Shown one piece after another: positions 49,508 to 61,542 of a DNA stretch of 64,000 nt (the stretch's first letter is position 1; each line of letters opens with the position of its first letter). Below the pieces are notes generated by a model that ran no database searches, had not been told where the DNA came from, and saw only the letters and a list, made by a program, of their open reading frames with translations. Source of the stretch: Promethearchaeia archaeon. Lineage in GTDB: Archaea > Asgardarchaeota > Lokiarchaeia > Sigyniarchaeales > SOKP01. Where the stretch lies: NCBI GenBank assembly GCA_029856155.1, contig JAHQWL010000040.1, positions 1-64,000 of the forward strand, written 5' to 3'. Position numbers and translations under genes: made by a program.

Positions 49508-50659
49508 TTAAAAGCCAACTATGCTCGTAGGCGTAAAATCATTATCTGAATCTACAGCAGCTCGTACATATGGTGAAACAGGCCCATTAGCTAAGACCAT
49601 TATTTTTATTTTCGATCCCATATCAGGCTTATTTTGAACGCCAAATTTTAATTGAGCGGTTTCTGGGATCTCATTTGAGATAGTTGATACAACTTTATCA
49701 ACTTTAGATAATGTTAAAGTATGATCACCAGTAACAGATACTAAACATCTATTCACTTGTGTTGGGTCTGGCTTTAAAAGAGGATTATTTAACGCTAATC
49801 TTGCTTTTTCTATTAAATCTGATTCTTCGCCTAAACATTCTGCTATTCCCACTAAGCCAGAAGGATATTTTCCATTTGGGTTTTCCAAAAGTGTTTTTTT
49901 TACATCTGCAAAATCAATGTTAACTAAACCACAATTATTAATTAAATTTACAACTTCACCAATATTTCTTATTAGTATTTCGTCCATAATCTTAAAGCCT
50001 GTTATCATAGGTATTTTTCCGACAATTCCTAGCAAATTATCGTTTGGAATTGGAATTAAGAAATCAGAATATTTAGCAAGATTTTTTAAACCTAGTTGAG
50101 CTCTTACTGATCTTTGCTTACCTTCAGAGCTAAATGGAAGTGAGCAAAAAGTAACTACAATTGCATTATTTTTTTTTGCTTCTGCTGCAATAATGGGTGC
50201 AGCTCCAGTTCCCGTACCACCACCTAATCCGCAAGTTAAAAAGATTATATCAGCATTTAAAGTTTTATTTAACCTGTCGCGGTCTTCTTCTGCTGCTTCA
50301 GCTCCAACTGAAGGGTCATTGCCTGACCCTAATCCATTACATCGTTCTTTTCCAATTAATATTTTATGCTTTGAATTTGAGTAATATAAGTCATGCGCAT
50401 CAGTATTAATATTTACTGTCTCAGCATTACTAATGCCCATATCATCTAATCTTGAAACTGTATTATTTCCAGCACCTCCTACACCAACCACGTATGTTTT
50501 AATTTTCAAAACTTTTAATAGATCTGCTAAAAATTTGTCATCATCACAATTAGGGTTTGAGTTAGGATTTTGGTTAAACTTAGCTATTTCATTGAACCTT
50601 TCTCTTACAGATGATCGAGATTTGGCTAATTCAACTAGGTCAAATATATCATCACTCAT
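49508..50659 (-). CDS. ftsZ: Cell division GTPase FtsZ
   Basis: GVGGAGNN, NTD, GLGGGTGTGAAP, PNDNL, NIDFADV. Confidence 0.93.
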   Translation of the reverse strand: MSDDIFDLVELAKSRSSVRERFNEIAKFNQNPNSNPNCDDDKFLADLLKVLKIKTYVVGVGGAGNNTVSRLDDMGISNAETVNINTDAHDLYYSNSKHKILIGKERCNGLGSGNDPSVGAEAAEEDRDRLNKTLNADIIFLTCGLGGGTGTGAAPIIAAEAKKNNAIVVTFCSLPFSSEGKQRSVRAQLGLKNLAKYSDFLIPIPNDNLLGIVGKIPMITGFKIMDEILIRNIGEVVNLINNCGLVNIDFADVKKTLLENPNGKYPSGLVGIAECLGEESDLIEKARLALNNPLLKPDPTQVNRCLVSVTGDHTLTLSKVDKVVSTISNEIPETAQLKFGVQNKPDMGSKIKIMVLANGPVSPYVRAAVDSDNDFTPTSIVGF

Positions 50660-51136: not shown

Positions 51137-52447
51137 TTATATCTCAAGATTAATTTCCCCGTACGTTCCTCCTCCCCCTGGAGTATAATTAATCTCGTCA
51201 TTTCTCATTGCTTTTATAATTGACGCTATATTCTCATTAAACTTTTTAATATGATTAATAGGTGTATCGATTATTATCTCAAATTCTGAACCTAACTTTT
51301 CAATAATATTATTATAAGCATTGAGTACCGTTTTACTAGTTTTACTTGTTATGTGTTTCACTGAACGTATGATATCGATTAATGGAACAGCATTAATATA
51401 ATCTGGTCTGTGATCTGGATGATTGGGTTTTTCACTAGTTGAAATCAGATCTATTCTTTCACTTACACCCAATTTTATTTTATAATTTTTACTTAATTCT
51501 TTCTTACAAGAAGGACATACTATTTTGGCCTTATTTACTTGACTAATATAATCTCGTTTAGCGATATCGGGATCATTAGTATATATAATTATAAAATTCT
51601 CTGTTATCGAATATTGGCTAAAGACGTCATTAAACGACTTTCTTGTTTTTTTAAAAAGAATTCTTCTTCTACATTTATTGCAAAACATATTATAATATTT
51701 TCCGAGTTTAGGATGCAACCCTACATTTAGTGATATTTTTCTATTATCTTTTCTTCTTATCGCTAATACTATTTCTTCAAAGGAGGGGTTATCAATATCA
51801 AATCTATTAAATTCTCGGCCTAAAGAGCGTGGTCCTTGTGAATGTGCATCGCTATTACTTAGAAAAGTTACATCTCTTAAACATTCCAATCTGTCTGCAA
51901 GATTCGTATTGGCAGATAATCCAAGTTCTATAAAATGAACTTTTTTTGTAGCATCTTGATAACAATCTGAAAGAGTTTCAAATCTATTTTGCCGAAATAT
52001 CGCTTTAAAAGGAGTAAAAGCGTGAGCAGGACCAATTAAAGCACCTTCATCTGAGATTATATCAACCAATTCTGCGGGAGGTAAATTAACCCTTGGACGT
52101 CCACCCCATTCACCCAAAATATTACTTGAATAAGGTTCTAATTTCTTTTGAATATTTCTAACCATCTCAAAATCTTCAAAAATGACAACTTCATGAACAC
52201 TTTCTTGATCTTCTATTTCAGATTGAAGAATAAAATTAACATCTTTATAATTATAGGCTCTATCTTTATTTTTTTCTAGTTTTTGTTCTAAATATTTTAA
52301 CCAATCTGGCTGTAAAACATCTCCAGTTCCTAAAATATTTAAACCTTTTTTTTTGCAGGTATCGATCATAGTATCTAAATTTAAAGATTTTGATACTCCA
52401 ATAGAATGGGGGGAATGAATGTGTAAGTCAGCATTGAAAAAATTCAT
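51137..52447 (-). CDS. PHP-domain endonuclease Q (TIGR00375-like) family protein
   Basis: ADLHIHS, GTGD, PAHAFTP, ELGLS, NSDAHS, LGRE, LGKY, Zn finger, GGGGTYG. Confidence 0.88.
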   Translation of the reverse strand: MNFFNADLHIHSPHSIGVSKSLNLDTMIDTCKKKGLNILGTGDVLQPDWLKYLEQKLEKNKDRAYNYKDVNFILQSEIEDQESVHEVVIFEDFEMVRNIQKKLEPYSSNILGEWGGRPRVNLPPAELVDIISDEGALIGPAHAFTPFKAIFRQNRFETLSDCYQDATKKVHFIELGLSANTNLADRLECLRDVTFLSNSDAHSQGPRSLGREFNRFDIDNPSFEEIVLAIRRKDNRKISLNVGLHPKLGKYYNMFCNKCRRRILFKKTRKSFNDVFSQYSITENFIIIYTNDPDIAKRDYISQVNKAKIVCPSCKKELSKNYKIKLGVSERIDLISTSEKPNHPDHRPDYINAVPLIDIIRSVKHITSKTSKTVLNAYNNIIEKLGSEFEIIIDTPINHIKKFNENIASIIKAMRNDEINYTPGGGGTYGEINLEI

Positions 52448-52519
52448 TTTTTATCCAAATTAAATAGTAGTGTTATAAATATTTTTAATTAAATTGAATT
52501 AAGAGTATTTTATTTATGA

Positions 52520-53566
52520 TTAAATAATGATCATTTTATCTTGAATTTGATCACTTAATAGAACTCTAAAATATTCTAATTCCTTCTTGAAAATTACTTT
52601 TTCTAACTTTCCTTCAACTAATACTTTTTCATTTTCTCTTGCGTGCTCACAAAAGCGACCTCTGAATGAGCTGATTTCACTAATATCTTTTATATTAATT
52701 TTGTTTGAATTATTACTAATTTCAAGAATTTTTAAAGGATTGATTTTATATGAACAAGGTGTAAAAATAGAGTCTCTTGAATCTATGATGTGTGCTTTAA
52801 GTTTAATTCTACCAAAATTTTTATATTGATAATCATAAAAATTTCCTTTCCAATCGTTGGGGCTTTTAATATATCTAATAAAAAAATCGGTATCCATATA
52901 TTTTCCCTGATGCTGTTTTCTTTGTTCACTTCTCAGAAAATCTTCAAATGGAATATTAGAACCACCTACTCTCCAATTATAATGCGATTTATATTCATCT
53001 ATATTATACTTCCGACAATTATTTGATTTCTCAAAGATTTTTACCAATTTTTCTTGAAATTTAACACTTGTTTCTGTACCATAAATTATTATGTCAATGT
53101 CAGATTCTTCAGTATTCAGTCCCACCATTATTGATCCTGTAATCCCTATTGAACCCTCAGAAAGATTTCCTTGCGAGCTAAATAATTCACATAATGTTCT
53201 AGAACGCTTTTCGCTAGTTGATAATATTTTTTTTTCTAATAGTTTTTTAAAGCAGTTTCGTGGGGTATAAATTTTTTTTATTTCTTTTTCTTTAACTCCT
53301 TGGACCTCTAAATCAAGTTCTTTAGAAAAAAAAAGATATTCTGGATATTTTTCTCTCAAAAGGGCATATCTATCTTCTAATTTGTAAATTTTTTTAAAAT
53401 TAATACCATTTTTTATCCGGGATCCCTCTGGATGAGGAAAAAATCGTAAAAAGCATATGATATAATCATTTGGATGGAGAAGACCTTTTACATCAAAAAA
53501 TAAATTATCATTTTTTGTTTCTATATAATCTCCTTCAATTCCTTTTAGAATTTTCATGAAATTCAC
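52520..53566 (-). CDS. Predicted nucleotidyltransferase (COG1665-like)
   Basis: GITGS...SDIDIIIYG. Confidence 0.8.
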   Translation of the reverse strand: MNFMKILKGIEGDYIETKNDNLFFDVKGLLHPNDYIICFLRFFPHPEGSRIKNGINFKKIYKLEDRYALLREKYPEYLFFSKELDLEVQGVKEKEIKKIYTPRNCFKKLLEKKILSTSEKRSRTLCELFSSQGNLSEGSIGITGSIMVGLNTEESDIDIIIYGTETSVKFQEKLVKIFEKSNNCRKYNIDEYKSHYNWRVGGSNIPFEDFLRSEQRKQHQGKYMDTDFFIRYIKSPNDWKGNFYDYQYKNFGRIKLKAHIIDSRDSIFTPCSYKINPLKILEISNNSNKINIKDISEISSFRGRFCEHARENEKVLVEGKLEKVIFKKELEYFRVLLSDQIQDKMIII

Positions 53567-53577
53567 AATTCAATTTA

Positions 53578-54735
53578 TTAATAACCAGAGGGAGTTTTTG
53601 TTTTAATATCTGATGGAGTCTTTGTGTTAATTGAGGGAGTTTTCTTTCTTATCTTTCTCAATTCTCTTTCAAATGCCTTTTTCTCATTTAGAAATCGTTG
53701 TTGATCTTTTTCTAATTTTTCTCTTTCACGTTTGATAATATTTTTATCACTTTCTAAGTTCGCTTTTTGCTTTTCCAGTTGTCTATATTCATTGTTTAAT
53801 CTGTTAAATTTTTCCTCTAAATTTGGAATTTTGTGATTCAAGGAGTGATATTTATTTTCTAGGGCAGGAATTTTTTTTTCTAATTCTTTTAATCTTGCTT
53901 CTTGTTGATGTCTTCTTTTTTCCAAATCATTTACATTCCTTTCTATCTTATCTTTATATTTTTTTAGATCTGCTTTTTTCTTATCAATTTCACGAGTTTT
54001 TAGGTCAATATCTTGCTTTTTATAACGAGTTTTTTCTCGTTCTTCTTTTAATTTTTTCTTTTCGTCAGAGATTCGATTTTTTTCATCACTAATCTCTCTC
54101 CTTAGACTATTAATTTCCTTATTTAAATTATCCCGATCTTTAGTTAAATCTTTGATTTCGTTTCTTAAATCCATTAACTTAGATTCTAGATCATTAATAG
54201 TTCTTTCTAAAGCATTTTCTCTTCTTTCCATACCAGGAATTTTTGTTTTTATTTCCTTTATTCGTTTTTCTGTCCGTTGTTTTTCCCATTCTAGATTCTT
54301 TTTTTGATCCCCGATATCCTCTCTCAATTTATCTAATTTTTCTTGAAATCTCTCTAATTCAGCATTTTTTTGATCTAATTCCTGATTTTTATTTCTGATT
54401 TTTTCTCTAAATTGTTGTTCTTTAGTTGTTAAATCACTATTCTGTTGTTTTATTTGATTTTTCGTTCTTTCTAACTCATCTCGTAAGTTATCTCGTTGTT
54501 CAAGGAGATATTTAATTTTAAGTTCTTTTTCTTTTCTTTTTTTCTCAAGATCTTCAACATTTTCTTTATAATTTTCAATTTGATTAATAACTTTTTCCCA
54601 TTCACTCTTTTCTTTATCTAACTTGATCCTTTCTTTTTTTAGTTTTTTAAGCAATTTTTTATCCGAAATTGTATCTAGTTTTTCATCTGGTGTTTTTTCT
54701 CGAATTTGATACTTAGGAATTGGTTCGTCGTTCAT
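53578..54735 (-). CDS. Long coiled-coil protein with C-terminal KTPS repeats
   Basis: Continuous E/K/R/L heptad-like sequence; tail KKTPSINTKTPSDIKTKTPSGY. Confidence 0.8.
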   Translation of the reverse strand: MNDEPIPKYQIREKTPDEKLDTISDKKLLKKLKKERIKLDKEKSEWEKVINQIENYKENVEDLEKKRKEKELKIKYLLEQRDNLRDELERTKNQIKQQNSDLTTKEQQFREKIRNKNQELDQKNAELERFQEKLDKLREDIGDQKKNLEWEKQRTEKRIKEIKTKIPGMERRENALERTINDLESKLMDLRNEIKDLTKDRDNLNKEINSLRREISDEKNRISDEKKKLKEEREKTRYKKQDIDLKTREIDKKKADLKKYKDKIERNVNDLEKRRHQQEARLKELEKKIPALENKYHSLNHKIPNLEEKFNRLNNEYRQLEKQKANLESDKNIIKREREKLEKDQQRFLNEKKAFERELRKIRKKTPSINTKTPSDIKTKTPSGY

Positions 54736-54935: not shown

Positions 54936-55361
54936 ATGGGTTTTGATAATGAATTTGATGATGAATTTGATGAACAAGAATTTGATGAAGATTTAGAAGA
55001 ATTAGAAGAAGAGTCTGAAGAAAATACAGAAGAAGATAAAGAAGAACCTTTTGAAAAGATTCCTGAGGAAGAAGTTGAAACAAAAACTCCTACTACTAAA
55101 ATTGTTTCTGGAGGGAAGAAGATTTCAGTATATTTTATGTCTACCATTGGTCCAGGTGAGAAAAAACAAAAACTAACTGTTAATGATGGAAATCTTGTCG
55201 GTGATATTAAAGAAACCGTAGCAAATTTATTTGGTTTAGATCCTGCTGACTTTCATTTATCTTGTGGTGGTATAACAATGGATGAAACTAATTCTTTAAG
55301 CTATTATACTATTTCTGATGGAGATGATATACTTTTAATTCCAGCTAGTACTGCCGGTTAA
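54936..55361 (+). CDS. Ubiquitin-like protein 1 with long acidic N-tail, C-terminus STAG
   Basis: Beta-grasp pattern V.DIK..V......L..GG..MD...L..Y.I.DGD.I.L; terminal Gly. Confidence 0.85.
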   Translation: MGFDNEFDDEFDEQEFDEDLEELEEESEENTEEDKEEPFEKIPEEEVETKTPTTKIVSGGKKISVYFMSTIGPGEKKQKLTVNDGNLVGDIKETVANLFGLDPADFHLSCGGITMDETNSLSYYTISDGDDILLIPASTAG

Positions 55362-55406
55362 ATCTTTCTTATAGAAATAAAGGGTTTTAAAATTAAGGTC
55401 GCTTTT

Positions 55407-56204
55407 TTAATTTTTCTCTTTTCGTGAGGGAATTAGAGCAATTTCATCGTCATCATCGATACTATAGTCCTTTATTTGTGAGTTCTCATCTAATAATATC
55501 CCCCCGGAAGATAAGAGAAAATCATGTTGTTCATAATCAAATAATAGTGCAATTTTCTCTTTAACTGCTCTTGCTGATTCATCTGTATCTATTATTATAA
55601 TTTTCGTTTTCTCACCCGGTTCCAATAGTGATCGTATATATACGCGAATTTGATCTTCTATTTCTATAGAACTTTTAGGAGGTGTATAAGTTATTGCACC
55701 ATTAATATTATCTCTGTTTTCCAACATATTTTCGATTAACTCTTTTCTCTCATTTGGGTCAAAATATATCATTTCTCTGATAAACAATATCTTGTCCATT
55801 TTTGATAACCCCAATAAGTTGATTTTATTTAATTCTTCCTGACTTAAGATTGAAAAAATATATTTATCAATAATTGGCATATCCTTATAGGACTCATTTG
55901 ATTCAACATAAGCTTCTATTGAGGGCAAAGCATCAATATAATCTTCAATAATAGTGAAATTGTTCTTTTGAATTGACTTTGGTTTTGCGATATACTTTTT
56001 ATCTTTTATCGTCTTGAAGGGACTACTACTTTTAGACTGTAAAACTGAATAAATTGTACTAGTGGATAAAACAGCAACACTACCAATAGTAAGAACAAGA
56101 AATAATGGCGTATTTTCTATGTGATATAGGAAAAAAAAGACATAGAACAAAATACACACAATATAAAGAGCGAAAACACTTAAAATTCTATAATTTTTTC
56201 TCAT
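55407..56204 (-). CDS. Membrane-anchored (2 TM) protein with C-terminal Ubl domain lacking terminal Gly
   Basis: C-terminal domain aligns with the two Ubls (PGEK...DF.LSSGG..LDENS...DY.IDDDDEI.LIP) but ends SRKEKN. Confidence 0.82.
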   Translation of the reverse strand: MRKNYRILSVFALYIVCILFYVFFFLYHIENTPLFLVLTIGSVAVLSTSTIYSVLQSKSSSPFKTIKDKKYIAKPKSIQKNNFTIIEDYIDALPSIEAYVESNESYKDMPIIDKYIFSILSQEELNKINLLGLSKMDKILFIREMIYFDPNERKELIENMLENRDNINGAITYTPPKSSIEIEDQIRVYIRSLLEPGEKTKIIIIDTDESARAVKEKIALLFDYEQHDFLLSSGGILLDENSQIKDYSIDDDDEIALIPSRKEKN

Positions 56205-56289
56205 GATTTTTTAATTAGATTGTTTTCTGAATTTAAAATATTTAATTTAAAATTTAAATGGGATTGGAATAAAATTGGAGTTTTTAATC

Positions 56290-56961
56290 TCATTCACCTT
56301 GAATTGATTTTCTCACATTGAAATATTTTCTAAGATCTAATTTGAATATATTCCTATTTTTTTCTTTTTCAGTTTTTATTAACTTTAAATCTATTAAAAT
56401 ATCTATATATTTTTTAATAGTGCTATGATTCTTTTTTAAACCATCTGCTATCTCTGTGATTTTTAATGCTTTATTTTCAATTCTCATAAATTCTATTATA
56501 TCTTGAACGAGATTCTTTTTCAAATAATAGTGAAACGGGTCAAGTTTTGGATTTGAATCAAATTTGAAGAACATTCTATGATTATTGATTTGTTTTGACC
56601 TAACAAATTGAAATTTTTCTAAGCATGATAAATGCCATAAAGCTTGATTACTGCCAATTTTTAGAACCTTCATTATTTCATTAATATTTGATGGATTTTT
56701 TTTTATAAAATTGAAGATTTCATTTCTTATAGGGTGTTCTATAATATTATTTTTCATTAATTTTGTTCCAGGGATAATAATACGCCGTTTAATTAAATCC
56801 TTTAAAACTAACTCGATTCTATTCTCGTTTATATTAGGGTTGTATCGTACTCTATTATTTATAAAGGAGATAATTTCTCTAATTGAAAAGAAGGTTTTCT
56901 TTTTTAAATACTCCCTTACTAATTCAAGAACAACAGATTCCGTATTATCCAGATGATTCAT
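56290..56961 (-). CDS. Multi-winged-helix transcriptional regulator
   Basis: RNEIFNFIKKNP...WHLSCLEK and ITEIADGLKKNHSTIKKYI HTH motifs. Confidence 0.8.
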   Translation of the reverse strand: MNHLDNTESVVLELVREYLKKKTFFSIREIISFINNRVRYNPNINENRIELVLKDLIKRRIIIPGTKLMKNNIIEHPIRNEIFNFIKKNPSNINEIMKVLKIGSNQALWHLSCLEKFQFVRSKQINNHRMFFKFDSNPKLDPFHYYLKKNLVQDIIEFMRIENKALKITEIADGLKKNHSTIKKYIDILIDLKLIKTEKEKNRNIFKLDLRKYFNVRKSIQGE

Positions 56962-57229
56962 AAGTCTTTACTTTTATTCCGTCAATTGATCCGGTTTTTA
57001 TAATTATATACTCTCTCTACAACAACTTTTCATAATTCATATATATATTGATAGGGTTTCATACAATTTATAATATAATTTCTTAAGAATTCTAATTTTC
57101 ACCTTTTTATTTTTGATAAGAACTTGAATACTTCAAAATCATTCCAAAGGGTTTTATAATATCTTTTTAACGCCATTTTATTAAGACTAATAAAAATTTA
57201 AAAATTAAAAATAAATGGAAGTGATATGA

Positions 57230-57562
57230 ATGAGTTTTGATGAATTTGATGAAGATTTAGGAGGAAATGAACCTGTAAAGTCTAAAACTCCTGCTAGTAA
57301 AACTCCCGCTGCAGGAAAGAAATTGACTTTATACTTTATGTCAACAATTGGTCCTGGCGAAAAGAAGGAAAAATTAACTGTAAATGACAGTAATCAAGTA
57401 AGAGACATTAAACAAACATTAGGAAATTTATATGGTCTTGATCCTAATGATTTCCATATTTCTAGTGGAGGGGTGACTATGGATGAAAATAGTTCCCTAA
57501 GCGACTATGATGTAAATGATGGTGACGATATTCTATTAATTCCCGCCAGTACAGCTGGTTAG
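57230..57562 (+). CDS. Ubiquitin-like protein 2, C-terminus STAG
   Basis: Close paralogue of 54936; directly upstream of E1. Confidence 0.87.
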   Translation: MSFDEFDEDLGGNEPVKSKTPASKTPAAGKKLTLYFMSTIGPGEKKEKLTVNDSNQVRDIKQTLGNLYGLDPNDFHISSGGVTMDENSSLSDYDVNDGDDILLIPASTAG

Positions 57563-57646
57563 ACTTATAAAACTTTCTTCATAAAATATAATATAAGTTA
57601 AGGGCATTTAGCCCTTCAATTTTTTTTATTTTTTTTGTAAAACTTA

Positions 57647-58906
57647 ATGGTGATAATATTGGATAAGGATACAGATTTTTTCGCAAAAGAATTGTCAGTG
57701 GAAGAGAGAGACCTTTATGACCGCCAATTTCGTTTGGAGGGATGGTCCCAGAAATTGGTAAAGAATTCAAGAGTTCTTATAGTTGGGGTTGGAGGTTTAG
57801 GTTGTGAAATTGCTAAAAACTTAGCTATGCTCGGTGTTGGTCACCTTGATCTTATTGATTTAGACATTATTGAACATTCTAATTTAAACCGTCAAGTTCT
57901 TTTTACGGGAGCAAAGATAGGAGAACCTAAGGCAGTTGTTGCAGCTCGAAAGTTGAAAGAAATTAATCCTAACATTATTGTTAAGGGATACCATACCTCT
58001 CTAGAACGTTTGAATCCCACACTATACCAAGCTGCGGATGTTGTTATTGGAGGTCTTGATTCAATGAATGCACGTCTAAATTTAAATGCACAATGTATAA
58101 GATTTAGAAAGCCATTAGTAGATGGAGGAGTATCTGGTTATTATGGTCATGTATACACAGTTTTTCCGTATAAAAATGCTTGTTATGAATGCAATCCATT
58201 GCCAGTAGGGGAAACTGATGAAATGGCTGCTTGTACCGTAGTTGGTATCCCTCGAAAAAGGATCCATTGTGTTTTTAAAGGAGATATGGCATTTAGAGAA
58301 AAATTTGATAGAGATCCAAATCCAAAAAATGTAAATGATATTAAATTCATTCAAAAGGTTGCAAATGAACTAGTAACCAAGTATGATTTCTTTCCTGAAT
58401 ATACTAAGGATGATATTGTGAAAATCATTGATAGACACGATCCTGGTATAATAACTATAAATGCTGTTATTTCTGCATTACAATCACATGAAACCACTAA
58501 AATTCTTCATTGGAAAAAAGGTCATAAAGGATTAGGTGAACCTATTAGAAATTATGTGATCTATAATGCAATTACAATGAAATTTTATCATATTGAAAAA
58601 AAAAGAAATCCAGAATGTTCTCAATGTGGTAAACAGGTTCGTCGAATATCTATAAAATTGAGATCTCAATCACCTTGTATAAATATAATTAAAATATTGG
58701 AGAAAAACGGATTTAAATTAGATCCAGATTCTGAACCGATACTAACTTTACTGGATTTCAATGATATTATGGTAATTGATTTAGAAAAGAATCCAATTGA
58801 AAATCGTCTAAGAAATTACGAATTTATGACGGCAGCAGGGTTTAAAGGTGGAGAAATTTTTGTAACCTTAAAAATAAAACAAAATTTGAATCAGAAAAAG
58901 GTTTAA
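57647..58906 (+). CDS. Ubl-activating enzyme E1 (UBA3/UBA2-like)
   Basis: YDRQ, GVGGLGCE, SNLNRQ, CYEC, catalytic ACTVVGIPRKRIHC, CSQC. Confidence 0.92.
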   Translation: MVIILDKDTDFFAKELSVEERDLYDRQFRLEGWSQKLVKNSRVLIVGVGGLGCEIAKNLAMLGVGHLDLIDLDIIEHSNLNRQVLFTGAKIGEPKAVVAARKLKEINPNIIVKGYHTSLERLNPTLYQAADVVIGGLDSMNARLNLNAQCIRFRKPLVDGGVSGYYGHVYTVFPYKNACYECNPLPVGETDEMAACTVVGIPRKRIHCVFKGDMAFREKFDRDPNPKNVNDIKFIQKVANELVTKYDFFPEYTKDDIVKIIDRHDPGIITINAVISALQSHETTKILHWKKGHKGLGEPIRNYVIYNAITMKFYHIEKKRNPECSQCGKQVRRISIKLRSQSPCINIIKILEKNGFKLDPDSEPILTLLDFNDIMVIDLEKNPIENRLRNYEFMTAAGFKGGEIFVTLKIKQNLNQKKV

Positions 58907-58973
58907 AATTAATATTATAAGAAAAAAACAATTATAAAATAAAAAATTAAAGATAATAATAAGGGTTGAGAAA

Positions 58974-59501
58974 ATGAGTATAAGAAGTAGTCGTATTTCC
59001 CGAGATTTTGCGGGATTAAAGAAAATGCTGAAAGAGGGTAGTCTTGTTCAATTAAACCCATTTAATCCTAAAAGGAAGAGTATTGATCATTTAGCAATTT
59101 CATTTAAAGGACCTAAAGGTACTGTTTATGCAGGTGGTCTTTTTAGGCTAGAATTGAAATTCCCAGCTCAATATCCTAATCAACCTCCTTTTGTTAGATT
59201 TCATACTCCAATTTGGCATCCAAATTTTTGGCCAAAACCATCTGAATATAAAGGACAAAGAAATATTTGTCTAGCGTTAGTAGATCCATCGTTTATAGGT
59301 AAAAAAGGGGGATGGAGTCCTTCAAAAACAGCTGTTACGGTTGTTCAAGCGATAATTGCTATGTTAAATACACGCGGTAAATATGTAAATCCTACTGATG
59401 TTTTCAATAAAAAAGCAGCAATTGAAATGATGAAAAATCCCAAATTTTTCGAGAAAAAAGTAAAAAATCTTGTTAAGAAGTATGCAAACAAAAAATGGTG
59501 A
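58974..59501 (+). CDS. Ubl-conjugating enzyme E2
   Basis: GPKGTVYAGG, FP.QYP..PP, IWHPN...ICL...WSP. Confidence 0.92.
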   Translation: MSIRSSRISRDFAGLKKMLKEGSLVQLNPFNPKRKSIDHLAISFKGPKGTVYAGGLFRLELKFPAQYPNQPPFVRFHTPIWHPNFWPKPSEYKGQRNICLALVDPSFIGKKGGWSPSKTAVTVVQAIIAMLNTRGKYVNPTDVFNKKAAIEMMKNPKFFEKKVKNLVKKYANKKW

Positions 59502-60325
59502 TTTTATCTATGGACGATAAAGAATCAGCCAAAAATTCAATCAAAGATACAATTAAGAGGAAGATAAAAGAAAAAATAAAACAAGAACTACTAGATGAAA
59601 TCTGTGAAGAACTAGCATTAGAAGAAGACGAATTAACAGAAGAAATTTCTTCAATTCTTACAAAAAAAACTTCTAATAAACCAACTATAAAACTTACAAA
59701 GATCCCTACAGCAGAAATTACAGAAAAAAAAGAGGTTGATATTCAAGAAGAAGAGAAAATCAATAAGGAAATTTATATTTCAGTAAAAGCGATCCTTAAA
59801 ATAGCGAGTCATGCACTTAAATATGCGAATTCTAAGATTCCAAGAGAAAAATGGGTGGAAGTTATAGGACTTTTAGCAGGAAAGATAGAAAAAAACAATG
59901 GTATCTTACATATTGAGGATGCTTATCCAATGGGGCATGGTACAGCTGTCTATGCTGAAATTAAAGATTATAAAAACTATGCTAGAGCATTCCAAGATAT
60001 TAAAAAACAAAGATTATTTATCTGTGGGTGGTATCATTCACACCCGAGCTATGGATGTTTTTTAAGTTCGGAAGATATGGGTACGCAAGCTAGATATCAA
60101 AAACTTTGGGATAAATCCGTTGCTCTTGTCATTGATCCATACCAAATTGATGGAAAATCCACAGGATTTGAAATATATACAGCGGATCTTAGAACTAAAA
60201 CATGGTATCCTTTAGTGTACGGAATTAAGGGATCACTAGATATTAAGATGCTTCCAGAAATTTTAAAATTTATGAATCCAATTATTGAAGGGAAAGCTGT
60301 ATACCTTGAATATGATGAAGATTAA
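59495..60325 (+). CDS. JAMM/MPN+ isopeptidase (Rpn11/CSN5-like); likely start 59510
   Basis: EVIGLL and GWYHSHPSYGCFLSSED, ALVIDP. Confidence 0.92.
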   Translation: MVILSMDDKESAKNSIKDTIKRKIKEKIKQELLDEICEELALEEDELTEEISSILTKKTSNKPTIKLTKIPTAEITEKKEVDIQEEEKINKEIYISVKAILKIASHALKYANSKIPREKWVEVIGLLAGKIEKNNGILHIEDAYPMGHGTAVYAEIKDYKNYARAFQDIKKQRLFICGWYHSHPSYGCFLSSEDMGTQARYQKLWDKSVALVIDPYQIDGKSTGFEIYTADLRTKTWYPLVYGIKGSLDIKMLPEILKFMNPIIEGKAVYLEYDED

Positions 60326-60354
60326 AATATAAGAAATTTGGTGATAATTAAACT

Positions 60355-61542
60355 GTGCCTAAATTTAAAGCTGTCGCAATAACACTGACGATATTTTTAT
60401 TTATAGGCATAATACATGGTGCAATTTTAAATTCTTTTAATGTATTTGTGAGCTGGTTATTAATAGGAATATGGTTAATTTTTTCTTTCAAAGTTTTAAA
60501 AAATATTAAACAATATCGTGAATATCGAAGTCCTCACAATACTGCATTTTTTACCGTTGGTCCTGTTTTTGTAGGTATATTTTATTCCATCTGGGGAAAT
60601 TTTACTGGTTTATTAGGAGAAAATCTTCTTGTAATTTCAGATTTATATTTAAGTTGGTGGAGTATTCTATTTGGATTTCCTTATGTATTGTATGGCTCAA
60701 TATCGTTATATCATTGTTTTAAAAAATATAATGTAATTTATTTTGGGACAAAATCAATAAACGCACGAAAATTTGGCTATATGTTAGGTTTTTCAATTCT
60801 ATTTTTCATAATTGTTTACTGGATAAGTTTTTATTCACTTATCGACTACTATGAATCGTTATTAATACCTCTCCATTTTTTAATAGATCTTAATCTTTTA
60901 TTATTGCTTATTGGTTCTATATTAATAATAATTATTCACGGTTTTTTTGGAACTCGAACCCAATTACCCCGATTGACAAGAGATTATATAACTAGACGTA
61001 CAAGTAGATTGAATGATTTAGCATCACCTAATAGGCGTAGAGAAAGTACCCGTAGTACAATACGATCATCCCCCACACCATCAACTAGAACAGTATCTCG
61101 TACTTCAAGATCAGTTTCTAATTCCTCAAGATCAACTCCTACTGCACATATACAATCAAGGAGTTCTAGAGTCAAAACAACTACTCGAACTACAAGTGGT
61201 AGTAAAACAGGACAGCCATTTAGAAGTAGTAAAAGTTCTATAAAACACATAAATTTTAAGTTATATAGACCAAAAGCTGCGAATTTGTCAGTGGAAGATT
61301 TTAAATGCATATTTTGTTTTAGATTACCCGAATTTCCTAAGGATAAGGGAAGAGGAATAATTTTATGTCCAAATTGTAGATATCCCGCTCATGCGGATGA
61401 ATTCAAAGATTGGCTCAGAAGCTCTCGTCTTTGTTCTAGATGTAATGCTCCTATTCCATCAAGTTATAGGAAAAATCCTAAAATTATTAGTGTAAAAAAT
61501 TATATAGTCATTTATAAGAGCTTATTAAGCAAAAGACTGTAA
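60355..61542 (+). CDS. Multi-pass membrane RING-finger protein (putative E3)
   Basis: About 5-6 TM helices, S/T/R-rich linker, CIFC...CPNC...HADE..W......CSRC. Confidence 0.8.
   Translation: MPKFKAVAITLTIFLFIGIIHGAILNSFNVFVSWLLIGIWLIFSFKVLKNIKQYREYRSPHNTAFFTVGPVFVGIFYSIWGNFTGLLGENLLVISDLYLSWWSILFGFPYVLYGSISLYHCFKKYNVIYFGTKSINARKFGYMLGFSILFFIIVYWISFYSLIDYYESLLIPLHFLIDLNLLLLLIGSILIIIIHGFFGTRTQLPRLTRDYITRRTSRLNDLASPNRRRESTRSTIRSSPTPSTRTVSRTSRSVSNSSRSTPTAHIQSRSSRVKTTTRTTSGSKTGQPFRSSKSSIKHINFKLYRPKAANLSVEDFKCIFCFRLPEFPKDKGRGIILCPNCRYPAHADEFKDWLRSSRLCSRCNAPIPSSYRKNPKIISVKNYIVIYKSLLSKRL

Follow-up and report, generated by a model that had tools for sequence, protein, structure and literature searches.

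The 64,000-nucleotide stretch analysed here (the window; contig JAHQWL010000040.1 of a Promethearchaeia archaeon) contains a locus that I read, with a probability of roughly three in four, as a dedicated Asgard ubiquitin-like (Ubl) conjugation cascade on the cytoplasmic side of the cell membrane. This reading starts from observed gene content, intact motifs, synteny, tail pattern, a predicted RING fold and a shared motif, and extends by homology and architecture to the biochemistry, site and substrates. The features are:

53578..54735, minus strand: coiled-coil protein of 385 aa, divergent from Ubl1, beyond the earlier borders
54936..55361, plus strand: Ubl1; long acidic N-tail with one KTP, ubiquitin-family core, end LLIPASTAG
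55407..56204, minus strand: TM-Ubl; two N-terminal TM helices, middle region, C-terminal Ubl domain ending IPSRKEKN
56290..56961, minus strand: double winged-helix (wHTH) protein, ArsR/SdpR-like (HTH_5 2.2e-7, HrcA_DNA-bdg 2.5e-5)
57124..57163, plus strand: conserved intergenic block; palindrome TTGAA-TAC-TTCAA (57124-57136), then TATA-like TTTTATAATA
57230..57562, plus strand: Ubl2; short acidic N-tail with SKTPASKTP, ubiquitin-family core, end LLIPASTAG
57647..58906, plus strand: E1; ThiF adenylation domain with catalytic-Cys insert, CxxC...CxxC, 80-aa C-terminal domain
58974..59501, plus strand: E2; UBC fold, HPN and Cys99, with the invariant insert FWPKPSEYKGQRNI between them
59495..60325, plus strand: Rpn11-like JAMM metalloprotease; variable 90-aa Lys/Glu-rich N-tail
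60355..61542, plus strand: six-TM protein, candidate membrane E3; 100-aa Ser/Thr/Arg linker, C-terminal RING/U-box-fold finger (61264-61539)

Every open reading frame of the initial annotation, which listed Ubl1, TM-Ubl and wHTH followed by Ubl2-E1-E2-JAMM-TM-RING, was found at its coordinates, and the eight genes of 54936-61542 are all real and conserved. That border was too narrow, the unit starting at 53578 with the coiled-coil gene, and "self-contained" was an overstatement because this conserved partner lies outside 54936-61542, a third Ubl lies on contig C24 and other contigs (C35 and C54) carry additional E1/E2 sets. The nine-gene order is seen again in about 45 species-level genomes and thus is not due to chance. 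In the synteny survey suggested earlier, about 60 Promethearchaeota genomes (species level) showed the core order Ubl-E1-E2-JAMM-TM-RING, which also occurs in other Asgard classes; ten loci from other families, orders or classes carry it whole or, on short contigs, in part. The operon is tight (E2 and JAMM overlap by 7 nt; gaps are 29-84 nt), and identities across these genomes of 69-97% for E1 and 55-94% for E2 indicate strong purifying selection. Its neighbours are housekeeping genes such as those for FtsZ and GTP cyclohydrolase, and the core itself has been inherited vertically as housekeeping machinery and is no defence island.

Both free Ubls, 69% identical to each other, end in LLIPASTAG, as expected from the earlier description of two paralogous modifiers ending in STAG; the AG-ending Ubl on C24 is 94% identical to Ubl2. 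The ending had been singled out as a "non-GG modifier", and although the AG end is real it is nothing odd, being a conserved family trait. One terminal Gly is also used by UFM1, ATG8 and ATG12 and so is not mechanistically exotic. Across 28 sequences the tail LLIPxSxAG does not vary; it is followed by 0-6 extra residues overall, with extras in a minority of species: Ubl2 orthologues have the exact AG end in 46 of 56 cases and 1-4 residues beyond it in ten, and about 9 of 47 Ubl1 orthologues bear a short extension. Such short extensions identify the final Gly as the residue that reacts, and a tail with few extra residues looks like the pattern of a processed precursor; the Rpn11 of Caldiarchaeum processes its Ub precursor (PMC6043591). 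Judged by sequence, the tag belongs to the ubiquitin family and not to Ufm1, Ubl2 scoring over the PF00240 cut-off (1.6e-6) and Ubl1 under it (2.2e-4). Ubl1 holds the ancestral position, adjoining the coiled-coil gene, is ancestral-like in sequence and falls in the tree with the single Ubls of relatives lacking the insertion described below. Ubl2 (clade support 100/98) opens the operon and is a derived paralogue with very high conservation; having come with that insertion, it cannot be counted as an ancestral component.

TM-Ubl, wHTH and the Ubl2 paralogue form an insertion confined to close relatives. The membrane-tethered third Ubl described earlier does have two TM helices by hydropathy and a Ubl domain (PF00240 1.9e-5, 24.8 bits, cut-off 25.4; in tblastn, 33-37% identity to both free Ubls, E 1e-11 to 1e-15), and the presumed local regulator does have two winged-helix domains (NCBIfam ArsR/SmtB 1.5e-8, SdpR 4.8e-8), but neither belongs to the ancestral system. 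None of 46 TM-Ubl orthologues has a terminal Gly, so the protein is not conjugatable as encoded, and an Atlas search with it returned nothing besides its own Promethearchaeota cluster. The wHTH gene occurs solely where TM-Ubl does, and its product is a candidate local regulator. Likewise, the intergenic block (columns at least 90% conserved in 45 aligned intergenic regions) is a candidate operator and promoter: the palindrome is found at a single place in the window, where 0.01 occurrences would be expected, and the TATA-like element lies about 70 nt ahead of the Ubl2 start.

The catalytic residues reported as intact in E1, E2 and JAMM are kept across 28-64 orthologues. E1 matches ThiF at 5e-61, and among solved structures its nearest relatives are SAE2, UBA1 and UBA3 (1e-38 to 1e-36), with UBA5 at 4e-16. 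Its GxGGxG and NLNRQ motifs and the Cys of AACTVVG, which aligns to Cys173 of SAE2, are invariant in 64 sequences; the C-terminal domain is possibly a ubiquitin-fold domain. As no partner subunit is encoded, E1 is probably a homodimer. E2 matches UQ_con at 9e-26 and, among solved structures, Ubc15, Cdc34/UBE2R, UBE2G1 and others (7e-17 to 1e-13); H82-P83-N84, C99 and the insert columns are invariant in 28 sequences from several classes. The protease (JAB, 5e-17) is closest among solved structures to the Caldiarchaeum Rpn11-like 6FJV (1.5e-16), then to Rpn11 and CSN5, and its orthologues keep the Glu of EVIGL and HSHPx7SxxD.

The six-TM protein closes the operon with E1, E2 and JAMM, a place kept across classes. 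Pfam has no family for it, and among its 378 homologues, those with a name at source are all called "hypothetical protein"; of the phylum's 400 genomes 240 carry it, as do 118 of the family's 134, mostly with one match each. The earlier proposal of a multi-pass E3 holds up as a candidate, with six TM helices by hydropathy and AF2 and a finger that folds as RING/U-box. Modelled alone, the finger reaches pLDDT 88 and its top Foldseek matches, HRD1 RING being among the matches, are all RING or U-box E3 domains; within the full-length protein, AF2 models it with low confidence. Invariant in it are C318, C321, C338, C341, H346, W353, C360 and C363, of which seven are metal ligands. The eighth ligand position (D348/E349) varies, with HADAF and HISEW in distant homologues, so a full two-zinc cross-brace is only putative. 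The remaining invariant residue, W353, is at the E2-contact position; in RING-H2 fingers a Trp serves this contact. A fold search with the TM domain matched no known fold, which leaves no tie to Hrd1 or other ERAD ligases. From a positive-inside reading of the loops, the finger and the Ubl domain of TM-Ubl are predicted to lie on the cytoplasmic side. Action at the membrane, as first suggested, is thus where the architecture points, and it is retained here as an interpretation of that architecture.

In about 50 close loci, and in six of the ten from other families, orders or classes, the coiled-coil gene sits upstream of the Ubl and is transcribed divergently. Its product begins with IPKYQIREKTP and ends with three xKTPS repeats and a final GY, end motifs that almost every orthologue retains (Thr varies, whereas Lys and Pro are nearly invariant). 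In the tag N-tail, K19-T20-P21 is invariant. Outside this system the proteome rarely has the motif: only 5 of the genome's 3621 open reading frames have at least two KTP within 40 aa, three of them from this system. The motif common to tag and partner makes the coiled-coil protein a candidate built-in substrate or docking scaffold, and, of the two roles first suggested, quality control and scaffold tagging, lends indirect support to the latter only; both stay putative. Lys-Thr-Pro may just as well serve docking or phosphorylation as act as an acceptor site.

In the proposed cascade, the tag would be produced ready with its Ala-Gly end, any extra residues being cut by the Rpn11-like JAMM. E1 would adenylate the terminal Gly, load the tag on its own catalytic Cys and pass it to Cys99 of E2. 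The cytoplasmic finger of the six-TM protein, on its long flexible linker, would recruit the charged E2, and this tethering would limit tagging to lysines of proteins in or near the membrane; JAMM would also remove the tag. The candidate acceptor is the invariant Lys of Lys-Thr-Pro, which in the tag's own N-tail may give SUMO-like chains and at both ends of the coiled-coil protein would make it a built-in substrate or scaffold. The three-gene insertion of this genus and its close relatives added a second tag (Ubl2), the non-conjugatable, membrane-anchored TM-Ubl as a possible adaptor and the double winged-helix regulator.

The ubiquitylation operon of Candidatus Caldiarchaeum subterraneum encodes Ub, E1-like, E2-like, small RING finger and Rpn11-like proteins (PMC5654768, PMC6043591), and Asgard clusters combine Gly-Gly ubiquitin with soluble RING E3s (PMC9192718; bioRxiv 10.1101/2023.07.25.550441). 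All five component types recur in the present operon: the tag is of the ubiquitin family, the E1 is ThiF-type and has a catalytic Cys, the E2 has HPN and Cys, and there are a RING-type finger and an Rpn11-like JAMM. The Caldiarchaeum protease is the nearest solved relative of this JAMM and, as there, the tag has a short C-terminal pro-peptide in some orthologues. Unlike them, it has an Ala-Gly tag with an acidic N-tail and invariant Lys-Thr-Pro, an E1 that is longer, at 419 aa, has a C-terminal domain and resembles eukaryotic E1s in its catalytic-Cys region, an E2 with an invariant insert, a finger that is the C-terminus of a six-TM protein without a conserved eighth ligand, and a co-inherited coiled-coil partner; no ESCRT linkage was found, the genome's ESCRT genes sitting on C8 and C57. 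The claim of a system distinct from the Gly-Gly operons is therefore borne out by its own AG tag family, the insert between HPN and Cys and the RING-fold finger on a six-TM protein. A literature search found no paper describing it. The same genome has other E1/E2 sets on C35 and C54, the latter contig with a Caldiarchaeum-type operon whose tag ends in GGS, and these pairs might cross-react with the three AG-ending tags.

Eukaryotic pathways offer further parallels. As in SUMO, a disordered N-terminal arm carries an invariant Lys in a short motif that recurs in a candidate substrate, and SAE2 is the E1's top solved match; the tag, however, ends in AG rather than GG, its motif is K-T-P rather than psi-K-x-E, and the Rad60-SLD (SUMO-like) Pfam model scores below ubiquitin on it. 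Like ERAD-type membrane RING E3s (Hrd1, gp78, Doa10/MARCH6, Dsc complex), the six-TM protein is multi-pass with a predicted cytosolic RING-type finger; TM-Ubl, encoded beside it, is membrane-anchored and non-conjugatable like the Ubl-domain cofactors HERP and TMUB1, and the solved structures closest to the E2 include the loop-bearing Ubc15/UBE2G1 and Cdc34 group. Yet the TM domain has no detectable sequence or fold relation to solved ligases, and the tag differs from true ubiquitin; the similarity is one of layout and does not imply homology.

Could the cascade be real and the six-TM protein no ligase? E2 would then read Lys-Thr-Pro directly, like Ubc9, through the family-specific invariant insert by its active site, and the six-TM protein would be a substrate, anchor or receptor of tagged proteins with a plain zinc-binding module. 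The seven conserved ligands with a variable eighth, and an acceptor-like motif that never varies in the tag and that the coiled-coil partner conserves, would suit this. I consider it unlikely, as the finger fold matches E3 RING/U-box domains only, the E2-contact Trp is invariant and the last place in the operon is kept across classes, much like that of Caldiarchaeum's srfp E3 (PMC5654768). Still less probable is an Asgard counterpart of the UFM1 pathway (UBA5, UFC1, UFL1-DDRGK1, ER membrane), acting at the membrane on ribosome-associated or ER-like targets. Mature UFM1 has a single terminal Gly with I-P-x4-G spacing, which the tag tail shares, and the genome has a Ufl1-like gene. Structure-based Ufm1 homologues are reported in nine Asgard clades, from models that omit long disordered ends and with some matches partial (PMC12962969), which would fit this tag family and its fusions. 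But PF00240 matches 28 of 28 tags and PF03671 (Ufm1) none even at E 10, nor did PF03671 match in the locus; a profile search of solved structures placed ubiquitin first, with UFM1 absent among the best 60. Moreover, E1 is far nearer SAE2/UBA1/UBA3 than UBA5, E2 is a canonical HPN UBC with no UFC1 (PF08694) found, the Ufl1-like gene is unlinked, on C52, and the protease is a JAMM, whereas that of the UFM1 pathway is the UFSP cysteine protease.

An antiviral module that tags viral proteins, like bacterial Bil or CBASS Cap2/Cap3, would have the identical part list (Ubl, E1, E2, JAB), and E1 weakly matches PADLOC CBASS E1-E2 models (3e-18). These matches are far weaker than those to ThiF and eukaryotic E1s, E2 and JAB barely score, and there is no E1-E2 fusion; with a conserved position, mostly one match per genome across the phylum, high sequence conservation and housekeeping neighbours, I regard defence as very improbable. 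Least credible of all is that the AG-ending proteins are sulfur carriers (MoaD/ThiS/Urm1/SAMP-like), with E1 serving cofactor or tRNA thiolation and no protein being tagged. E1 does match MoeB/ThiF models (1e-43, well under their cut-offs), and SAMP and Urm1 are dual-use systems. Known sulfur carriers, however, end in Gly-Gly, not AG; Pfam finds ThiF alone on E1, with no rhodanese domain; the neighbours scanned include no sulfur-transfer gene, whether sulfurtransferase, MoaE or ThiG; and E1 is inherited together with a UBC E2, a RING-fold finger and an Rpn11-like protease.

Returning to the membrane conjugation cascade, a complete and highly conserved AG-tag gene set in this Loki-type Asgard archaeon with a likely six-helix membrane ligase suggests that ubiquitin-style tagging at the membrane is probably older than eukaryotes.

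The ORF list of the window contains every gene that the initial annotation had named for this locus, at the coordinates claimed for each.

Genes of the Ubl locus from the ORF list (window positions, strand, product)
54936-55361, +, Ubl1
55407-56204, -, TM-Ubl, two TM helices and, at the C-terminus, a Ubl domain
56290-56961, -, protein with two winged-helix domains (wHTH)
57230-57562, +, Ubl2
57647-58906, +, E1
58974-59501, +, E2
59495-60325, +, JAMM
60355-61542, +, six-TM membrane protein (TM-RING)

Because the genes from Ubl2 to TM-RING are co-directional, with intergenic gaps of 29-84 nt and a 7-nt overlap between E2 and JAMM, this block reads as one operon. Pfam recognises the E1 (ThiF, 5e-61), the E2 (UQ_con, 9e-26), the JAMM protein (JAB, 5e-17) and Ubl2 (ubiquitin, 1.6e-6); Ubl1 and TM-Ubl score slightly below the cut-off of the ubiquitin model and are clear paralogues by tblastn. 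The upstream neighbours (window 49508-50659 (-) and 51137-53566 (-)) are FtsZ/tubulin-family, 436-aa and nucleotidyltransferase-domain genes, none of them visibly connected with the Ubl locus; the 436-aa protein has no Pfam match, and its N-terminus is PHP-like by eye. The contig of which the window forms the first 64 kb is 189 kb long and belongs to a 4.1-Mb, 97%-complete assembly.

The catalytic residues had been described as intact, and alignment of the E1, E2 and JAMM motifs bears this out, since all of them are conserved. The Cys of the AACTVVG motif in E1 aligns with the catalytic Cys of SAE2, and the best solved relatives of this E1 are SAE2, UBA1 and UBA3 (1e-38 to 1e-36), far above MoeB, ThiF and UBA5. 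In E2, H82-P83-N84 and C99 are invariant, as is an unusual insert of 14 residues between the HPN motif and the Cys. The locus thus agrees with archaeal ubiquitylation operons in its enzyme pair: the E1 is of ThiF type and has a catalytic Cys, and the E2 is a UBC protein with both HPN and Cys. The closest solved relative of the JAMM protein is the Caldiarchaeum Rpn11-like enzyme 6FJV (1.5e-16), followed by Rpn11 and CSN5, and its metal-site Glu and HxHx7SxxD motif, as expected of an Rpn11-like protein, are kept in 64 sequences. Residues 1-90 of the JAMM protein (window 59495-59770) form a Lys/Glu-rich, poorly conserved N-terminal extension which the Caldiarchaeum enzyme lacks.

Ubl1, Ubl2 and a further copy on contig C24 of the same genome all end in Ala-Gly, and I refer to them and their orthologues as tags. 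Among 28 tags from several classes, all match PF00240 (best 1.2e-10), and a profile search of solved structures with the tag places ubiquitin and archaeal ubiquitins, including Caldiarchaeum Ub, at the top. These 28 tags share an acidic N-tail in which K-T-P is invariant, a STIGPGEK loop and an invariant tail, L-(L)-I-P-x-S-x-A-G. The annotated non-GG modifier is confirmed, as the tail reads S-[TIVR]-A-G in all orthologues and its terminal Gly is invariant, with no Gly-Gly end. Translation stops exactly at this Gly in 46 of 56 Ubl2 and 38 of 47 Ubl1 orthologues, the remainder carrying short extensions; tags of distant loci end AG-I, AG-M, AG-GF or AG-GISIAS. Such extensions suggest a processed precursor of which the last Gly would be the reactive end. 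In Caldiarchaeum, Rpn11 processes that organism's Ub precursor (PMC6043591). Two other Asgard genomes carry fusions, each adjoining the same type of operon: at locus L070 (15075-16814, -) a HerA-type P-loop ATPase carries an AG-ending Ubl as its C-terminal part and ends SSRAG, and at locus L078 (2213-3961, +) a vWA-domain protein carries one in the same place and ends ASTAG plus 6 residues.

In a maximum-likelihood tree of Ubl cores, one clade (100/98) on a long stem unites the C24 orphan with every E1-adjacent copy. The Ubl2 clade is nested in a group (95/90) that also holds copies of Ubl1 type and, from relatives lacking the TM-Ubl and wHTH insertion, their single tags. This topology indicates that Ubl2 is a derived paralogue whose origin coincided with that of the insertion. 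To judge from the sequences, Ubl2 has been kept almost constant since its origin, and Ubl1 retains both an ancestral-like sequence and the ancestral position. The orphan (C24:30900-31232, +) falls in the Ubl2 clade and is 94% identical to Ubl2; no E1, E2 or JAB gene lies near it, and its neighbours encode small zinc-ribbon and membrane proteins.

How far does this arrangement extend beyond a single genome? A search with the E1 recovered 62 related loci, nearly all titled Promethearchaeota, as NCBI names the Asgard phylum. Gene order is identical to that of the window in about 45 loci with enough flanking sequence, running coiled-coil (-), Ubl1 (+), TM-Ubl (-), wHTH (-) and then, all on the + strand, Ubl2, E1, E2, JAMM and TM-RING. 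TM-Ubl, wHTH and a second tag are missing from three family members at greater distance (E1 identity 69-75%), and likewise from ten loci of other families, orders and classes; these ten keep Ubl-E1-E2-JAMM-TM-RING where the contig is long enough, and in six of them the coiled-coil gene lies upstream in divergent orientation. Of 400 genomes of the phylum, 240 have the TM-RING protein, and so do 118 of the 134 family genomes; most of them give a single match. Identity across close loci is 69-97% for E1, 75-95% for E2, 67-98% for Ubl2, 37-90% for TM-RING and 30-90% for the coiled-coil protein. Synteny and identity conserved to this degree mark the locus as core machinery passed on vertically and not as a defence island. 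Within the same order, a closed genome of 6.04 Mb has the core operon with the coiled-coil gene, and a closed 4.4-Mb genome from the same family as the 6.04-Mb one gives only a weak TM-RING match (6e-7).

The TM-RING protein has six helices by hydropathy and AF2, followed by a Ser/Thr/Arg linker of about 100 residues, and from the charges of its loops both ends, and hence the C-terminal finger, are predicted to be cytoplasmic. The finger is part of this membrane protein (residues 304-395 of 395 aa) and not a small soluble RING (srfp), and the ORF list has no separate small finger gene within the locus. Because the full-length AF2 model was moderate (mean pLDDT 59, with finger and linker at low confidence), a model of the domain by itself was used; the last 92 residues, folded alone with a 30-sequence alignment, reached pLDDT 88 and pTM 0.77. 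Almost all of the top 50 Foldseek matches to this model are RING or U-box domains (probability 0.9-1.0, TM about 0.5, E from 1.8e-3), including 3LRQ, Bmi1/Ring1b, Rad18, the HRD1 RING, RNF38 and Prp19. As modelled, the finger has the RING/U-box fold of a beta-hairpin, a helix and two loops. Of the eight ligands of a zinc cross-brace (C3HC4 or C3H2C3), seven putative ones (C, C, C, C, H, C, C) are invariant, as is W353 at the position that usually contacts the E2. The eighth ligand, at the ligand-6 position, had been annotated as Glu; most orthologues have Asp or Glu there, but the position varies in distant ones, reading for example HADAF or HISEW, and this assignment is therefore doubtful. 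Complex prediction for E2, finger and two zinc ions gave scores of 0.00, 0.35 and 0.01, with the mark at 0.32, which speaks neither for nor against an interaction.

Pfam and NCBIfam searches with the TM-RING protein returned nothing beyond a sub-threshold zinc ribbon. A fold search with its TM domain (VIA wide, full-length model) gave only generic helical bundles (Z 8.8 or less), and the TM part was thus given no fold assignment. Neither search relates the TM domain to ERAD-type E3s such as Hrd1 and Doa10: it matches no Pfam family and resembles no solved structure. Homologues that a source has named are all called 'hypothetical protein'. The second membrane protein, TM-Ubl, combines two helices with a Ubl domain predicted to be cytoplasmic, and none of its orthologues ends in Gly; an Atlas search with it returned only its own cluster.

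The product of the divergent coiled-coil gene has a motif in common with the tag. Two or more KTP within 40 residues occur in only 5 of 3621 ORFs of the genome, and the coiled-coil protein, Ubl2 and the C24 tag account for three of these. In coiled-coil orthologues the N-terminal end has IPK(Y/H)xI(R/K)xKTP and the C-terminal end has (I/x)K(S/T)KTPS, repeated one to four times, and these motifs are found in nearly all of them, other orders and classes included, with Lys and Pro nearly constant and Thr variable. SUMO chains form via a lysine in a disordered arm. An invariant Lys in a disordered arm of the tag and at both ends of its partner would look like a consensus acceptor site, and a docking or phosphorylation motif would explain K-T-P equally well. 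Matches of the coiled-coil protein to ATG16, APG6, JetC, LmuB and others in Pfam and PADLOC were below cut-off and typical of coiled-coil noise, and were not accepted as homology.

The locus may also have its own control. The wHTH protein matches ArsR/SdpR-type HTH models in Pfam and NCBIfam, and the 268-nt region between its gene and Ubl2 has blocks conserved in 45 genomes.

Candidate control sites in the wHTH-Ubl2 intergenic region (window positions)
57124-57136, conserved palindrome TTGAA-TAC-TTCAA, candidate operator
within 57124-57163, about 70 nt before the Ubl2 start, TATA-like box, candidate promoter

The palindrome and the TATA-like box are compatible with control by a local protein, be it a repressor or an activator. 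Neither Rfam nor a tRNA scan gave a match in the 64-kb window. The sequencing runs listed for the source DNA are marine-sediment and salt-marsh metagenomes, with no RNA run among those listed.

The locus had also been called self-contained, which is only partly true, since the C24 tag and further E1 and E2 sets lie elsewhere in the genome.

Ubiquitin-type genes on other contigs of the source genome (contig:positions, content)
C54:13617-16599, Caldiarchaeum-type operon with a 76-aa zinc finger, an 85-aa tag (VIGGS end), an E2-like protein, a 294-aa E1 and a 166-aa JAMM
C35:18720-22175, eukaryote-like pair of E1 (527 aa) and E2 (172 aa)
C52:28865-29473, Ufl1-like 803-aa open frame (E3_UFM1_ligase, 3e-16)

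In its adenylation core the C35 E1 is 48% identical to the locus E1, and the C35 E2 is 37% identical to the locus E2; because no tag gene accompanies the C35 pair, these enzymes might use the AG-ending tags as well. Beside the C54 operon lie three paralogues of about 300 aa whose N-termini are alike. Contig C52 has one ubiquitin-family match, and ESCRT-III genes are found on C8 and C57 and not at the Ubl locus.

To which known system, if any, could this locus belong? The spacing of the tag's tail recalls UFM1. Structure-based Ufm1 homologues have been described in Asgard archaea (PMC12962969). PF03671 matches none of the 28 tags even at an E-value of 10 and gives no genomic match at this locus; the E1 resembles SAE2 and UBA1 (1e-38) far more than UBA5 (4e-16); and the E2, which would have to be of UFC1 type, matches UQ_con and has an HPN motif. 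The genome as a whole yielded neither PF08694 (UFC1), a model also silent in every control genome, nor the Ufm1 family, and membership of the tag, E1 and E2 in the UFM1 system is not supported by these sequence comparisons. A defence role of the Bil or CBASS Cap2-Cap3 kind fares no better, as PADLOC gave only weak generic matches and the synteny is phylum-wide, with mostly one match per genome. Sulfur carriers (MoaD, ThiS, SAMP, Urm1) were rejected on the AG tail, an E1 with ThiF only and the presence of an E2.

The archaeal ubiquitin operons come nearest, with the same predicted enzymology. Work on these includes a reconstitution of Caldiarchaeum ubiquitylation (PMC5654768), a study of Caldiarchaeum Rpn11 (PMC6043591), a survey of Asgard ubiquitin and ESCRT (PMC9192718) and a reconstitution of Helarchaeial Gly-Gly ubiquitin with a soluble RING (bioRxiv 10.1101/2023.07.25.550441). 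The known Asgard operons have Gly-Gly tags and small soluble RINGs, and some are tied to ESCRT. The present locus differs from the archaeal ubiquitin operons in the tail of its tag, in a membrane-embedded ligase candidate and in a motif-marked coiled-coil partner, to which the source lineage adds a membrane Ubl-domain protein, a regulator and a tag paralogue. No description of an Ala-Gly tag, a membrane-embedded RING or a coiled-coil partner was found in the literature searched, which excluded most subscription journals.

A distinct Ubl pathway acting at the membrane, as initially annotated, is thus the best explanation of the locus: its distinctness agrees with the AG tag and the six-TM RING-fold protein, and its place at the membrane is read from the architecture of the proteins. 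A more detailed model, to which I would give roughly one chance in four, is that the locus represents a third, Asgard-wide type of Ubl pathway besides Gly-Gly ubiquitin and SAMP/Urm1. The E2 would read Lys-x-Pro, and the membrane RING would polymerise the tag through its N-tail Lys and tag both ends of the coiled-coil protein, building or dismantling a tagged scaffold on the inner side of the membrane.

If the locus works as a distinct Ubl pathway at the membrane, trypsin would leave no Gly-Gly remnant on its targets, and remnant-based proteomics would therefore miss the tag; as K61 is the last Lys of Ubl2, the tryptic remnant would be some 49 residues long. The coiled-coil protein with its shared Lys-Thr-Pro would be a concrete candidate for the first substrate. 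The locus is a second Asgard system, equally ancient and more strongly conserved than the known operons, whose sole ligase candidate is an integral membrane protein. Eukaryotes base ERAD and membrane-protein sorting on membrane tagging by RING E3s, and on the same condition such tagging would already have been present in their archaeal relatives. Finally, if the six-TM RING is a forerunner of the eukaryotic membrane E3s, the endomembrane system would be younger than the control of membrane proteins by ubiquitin-type tagging.
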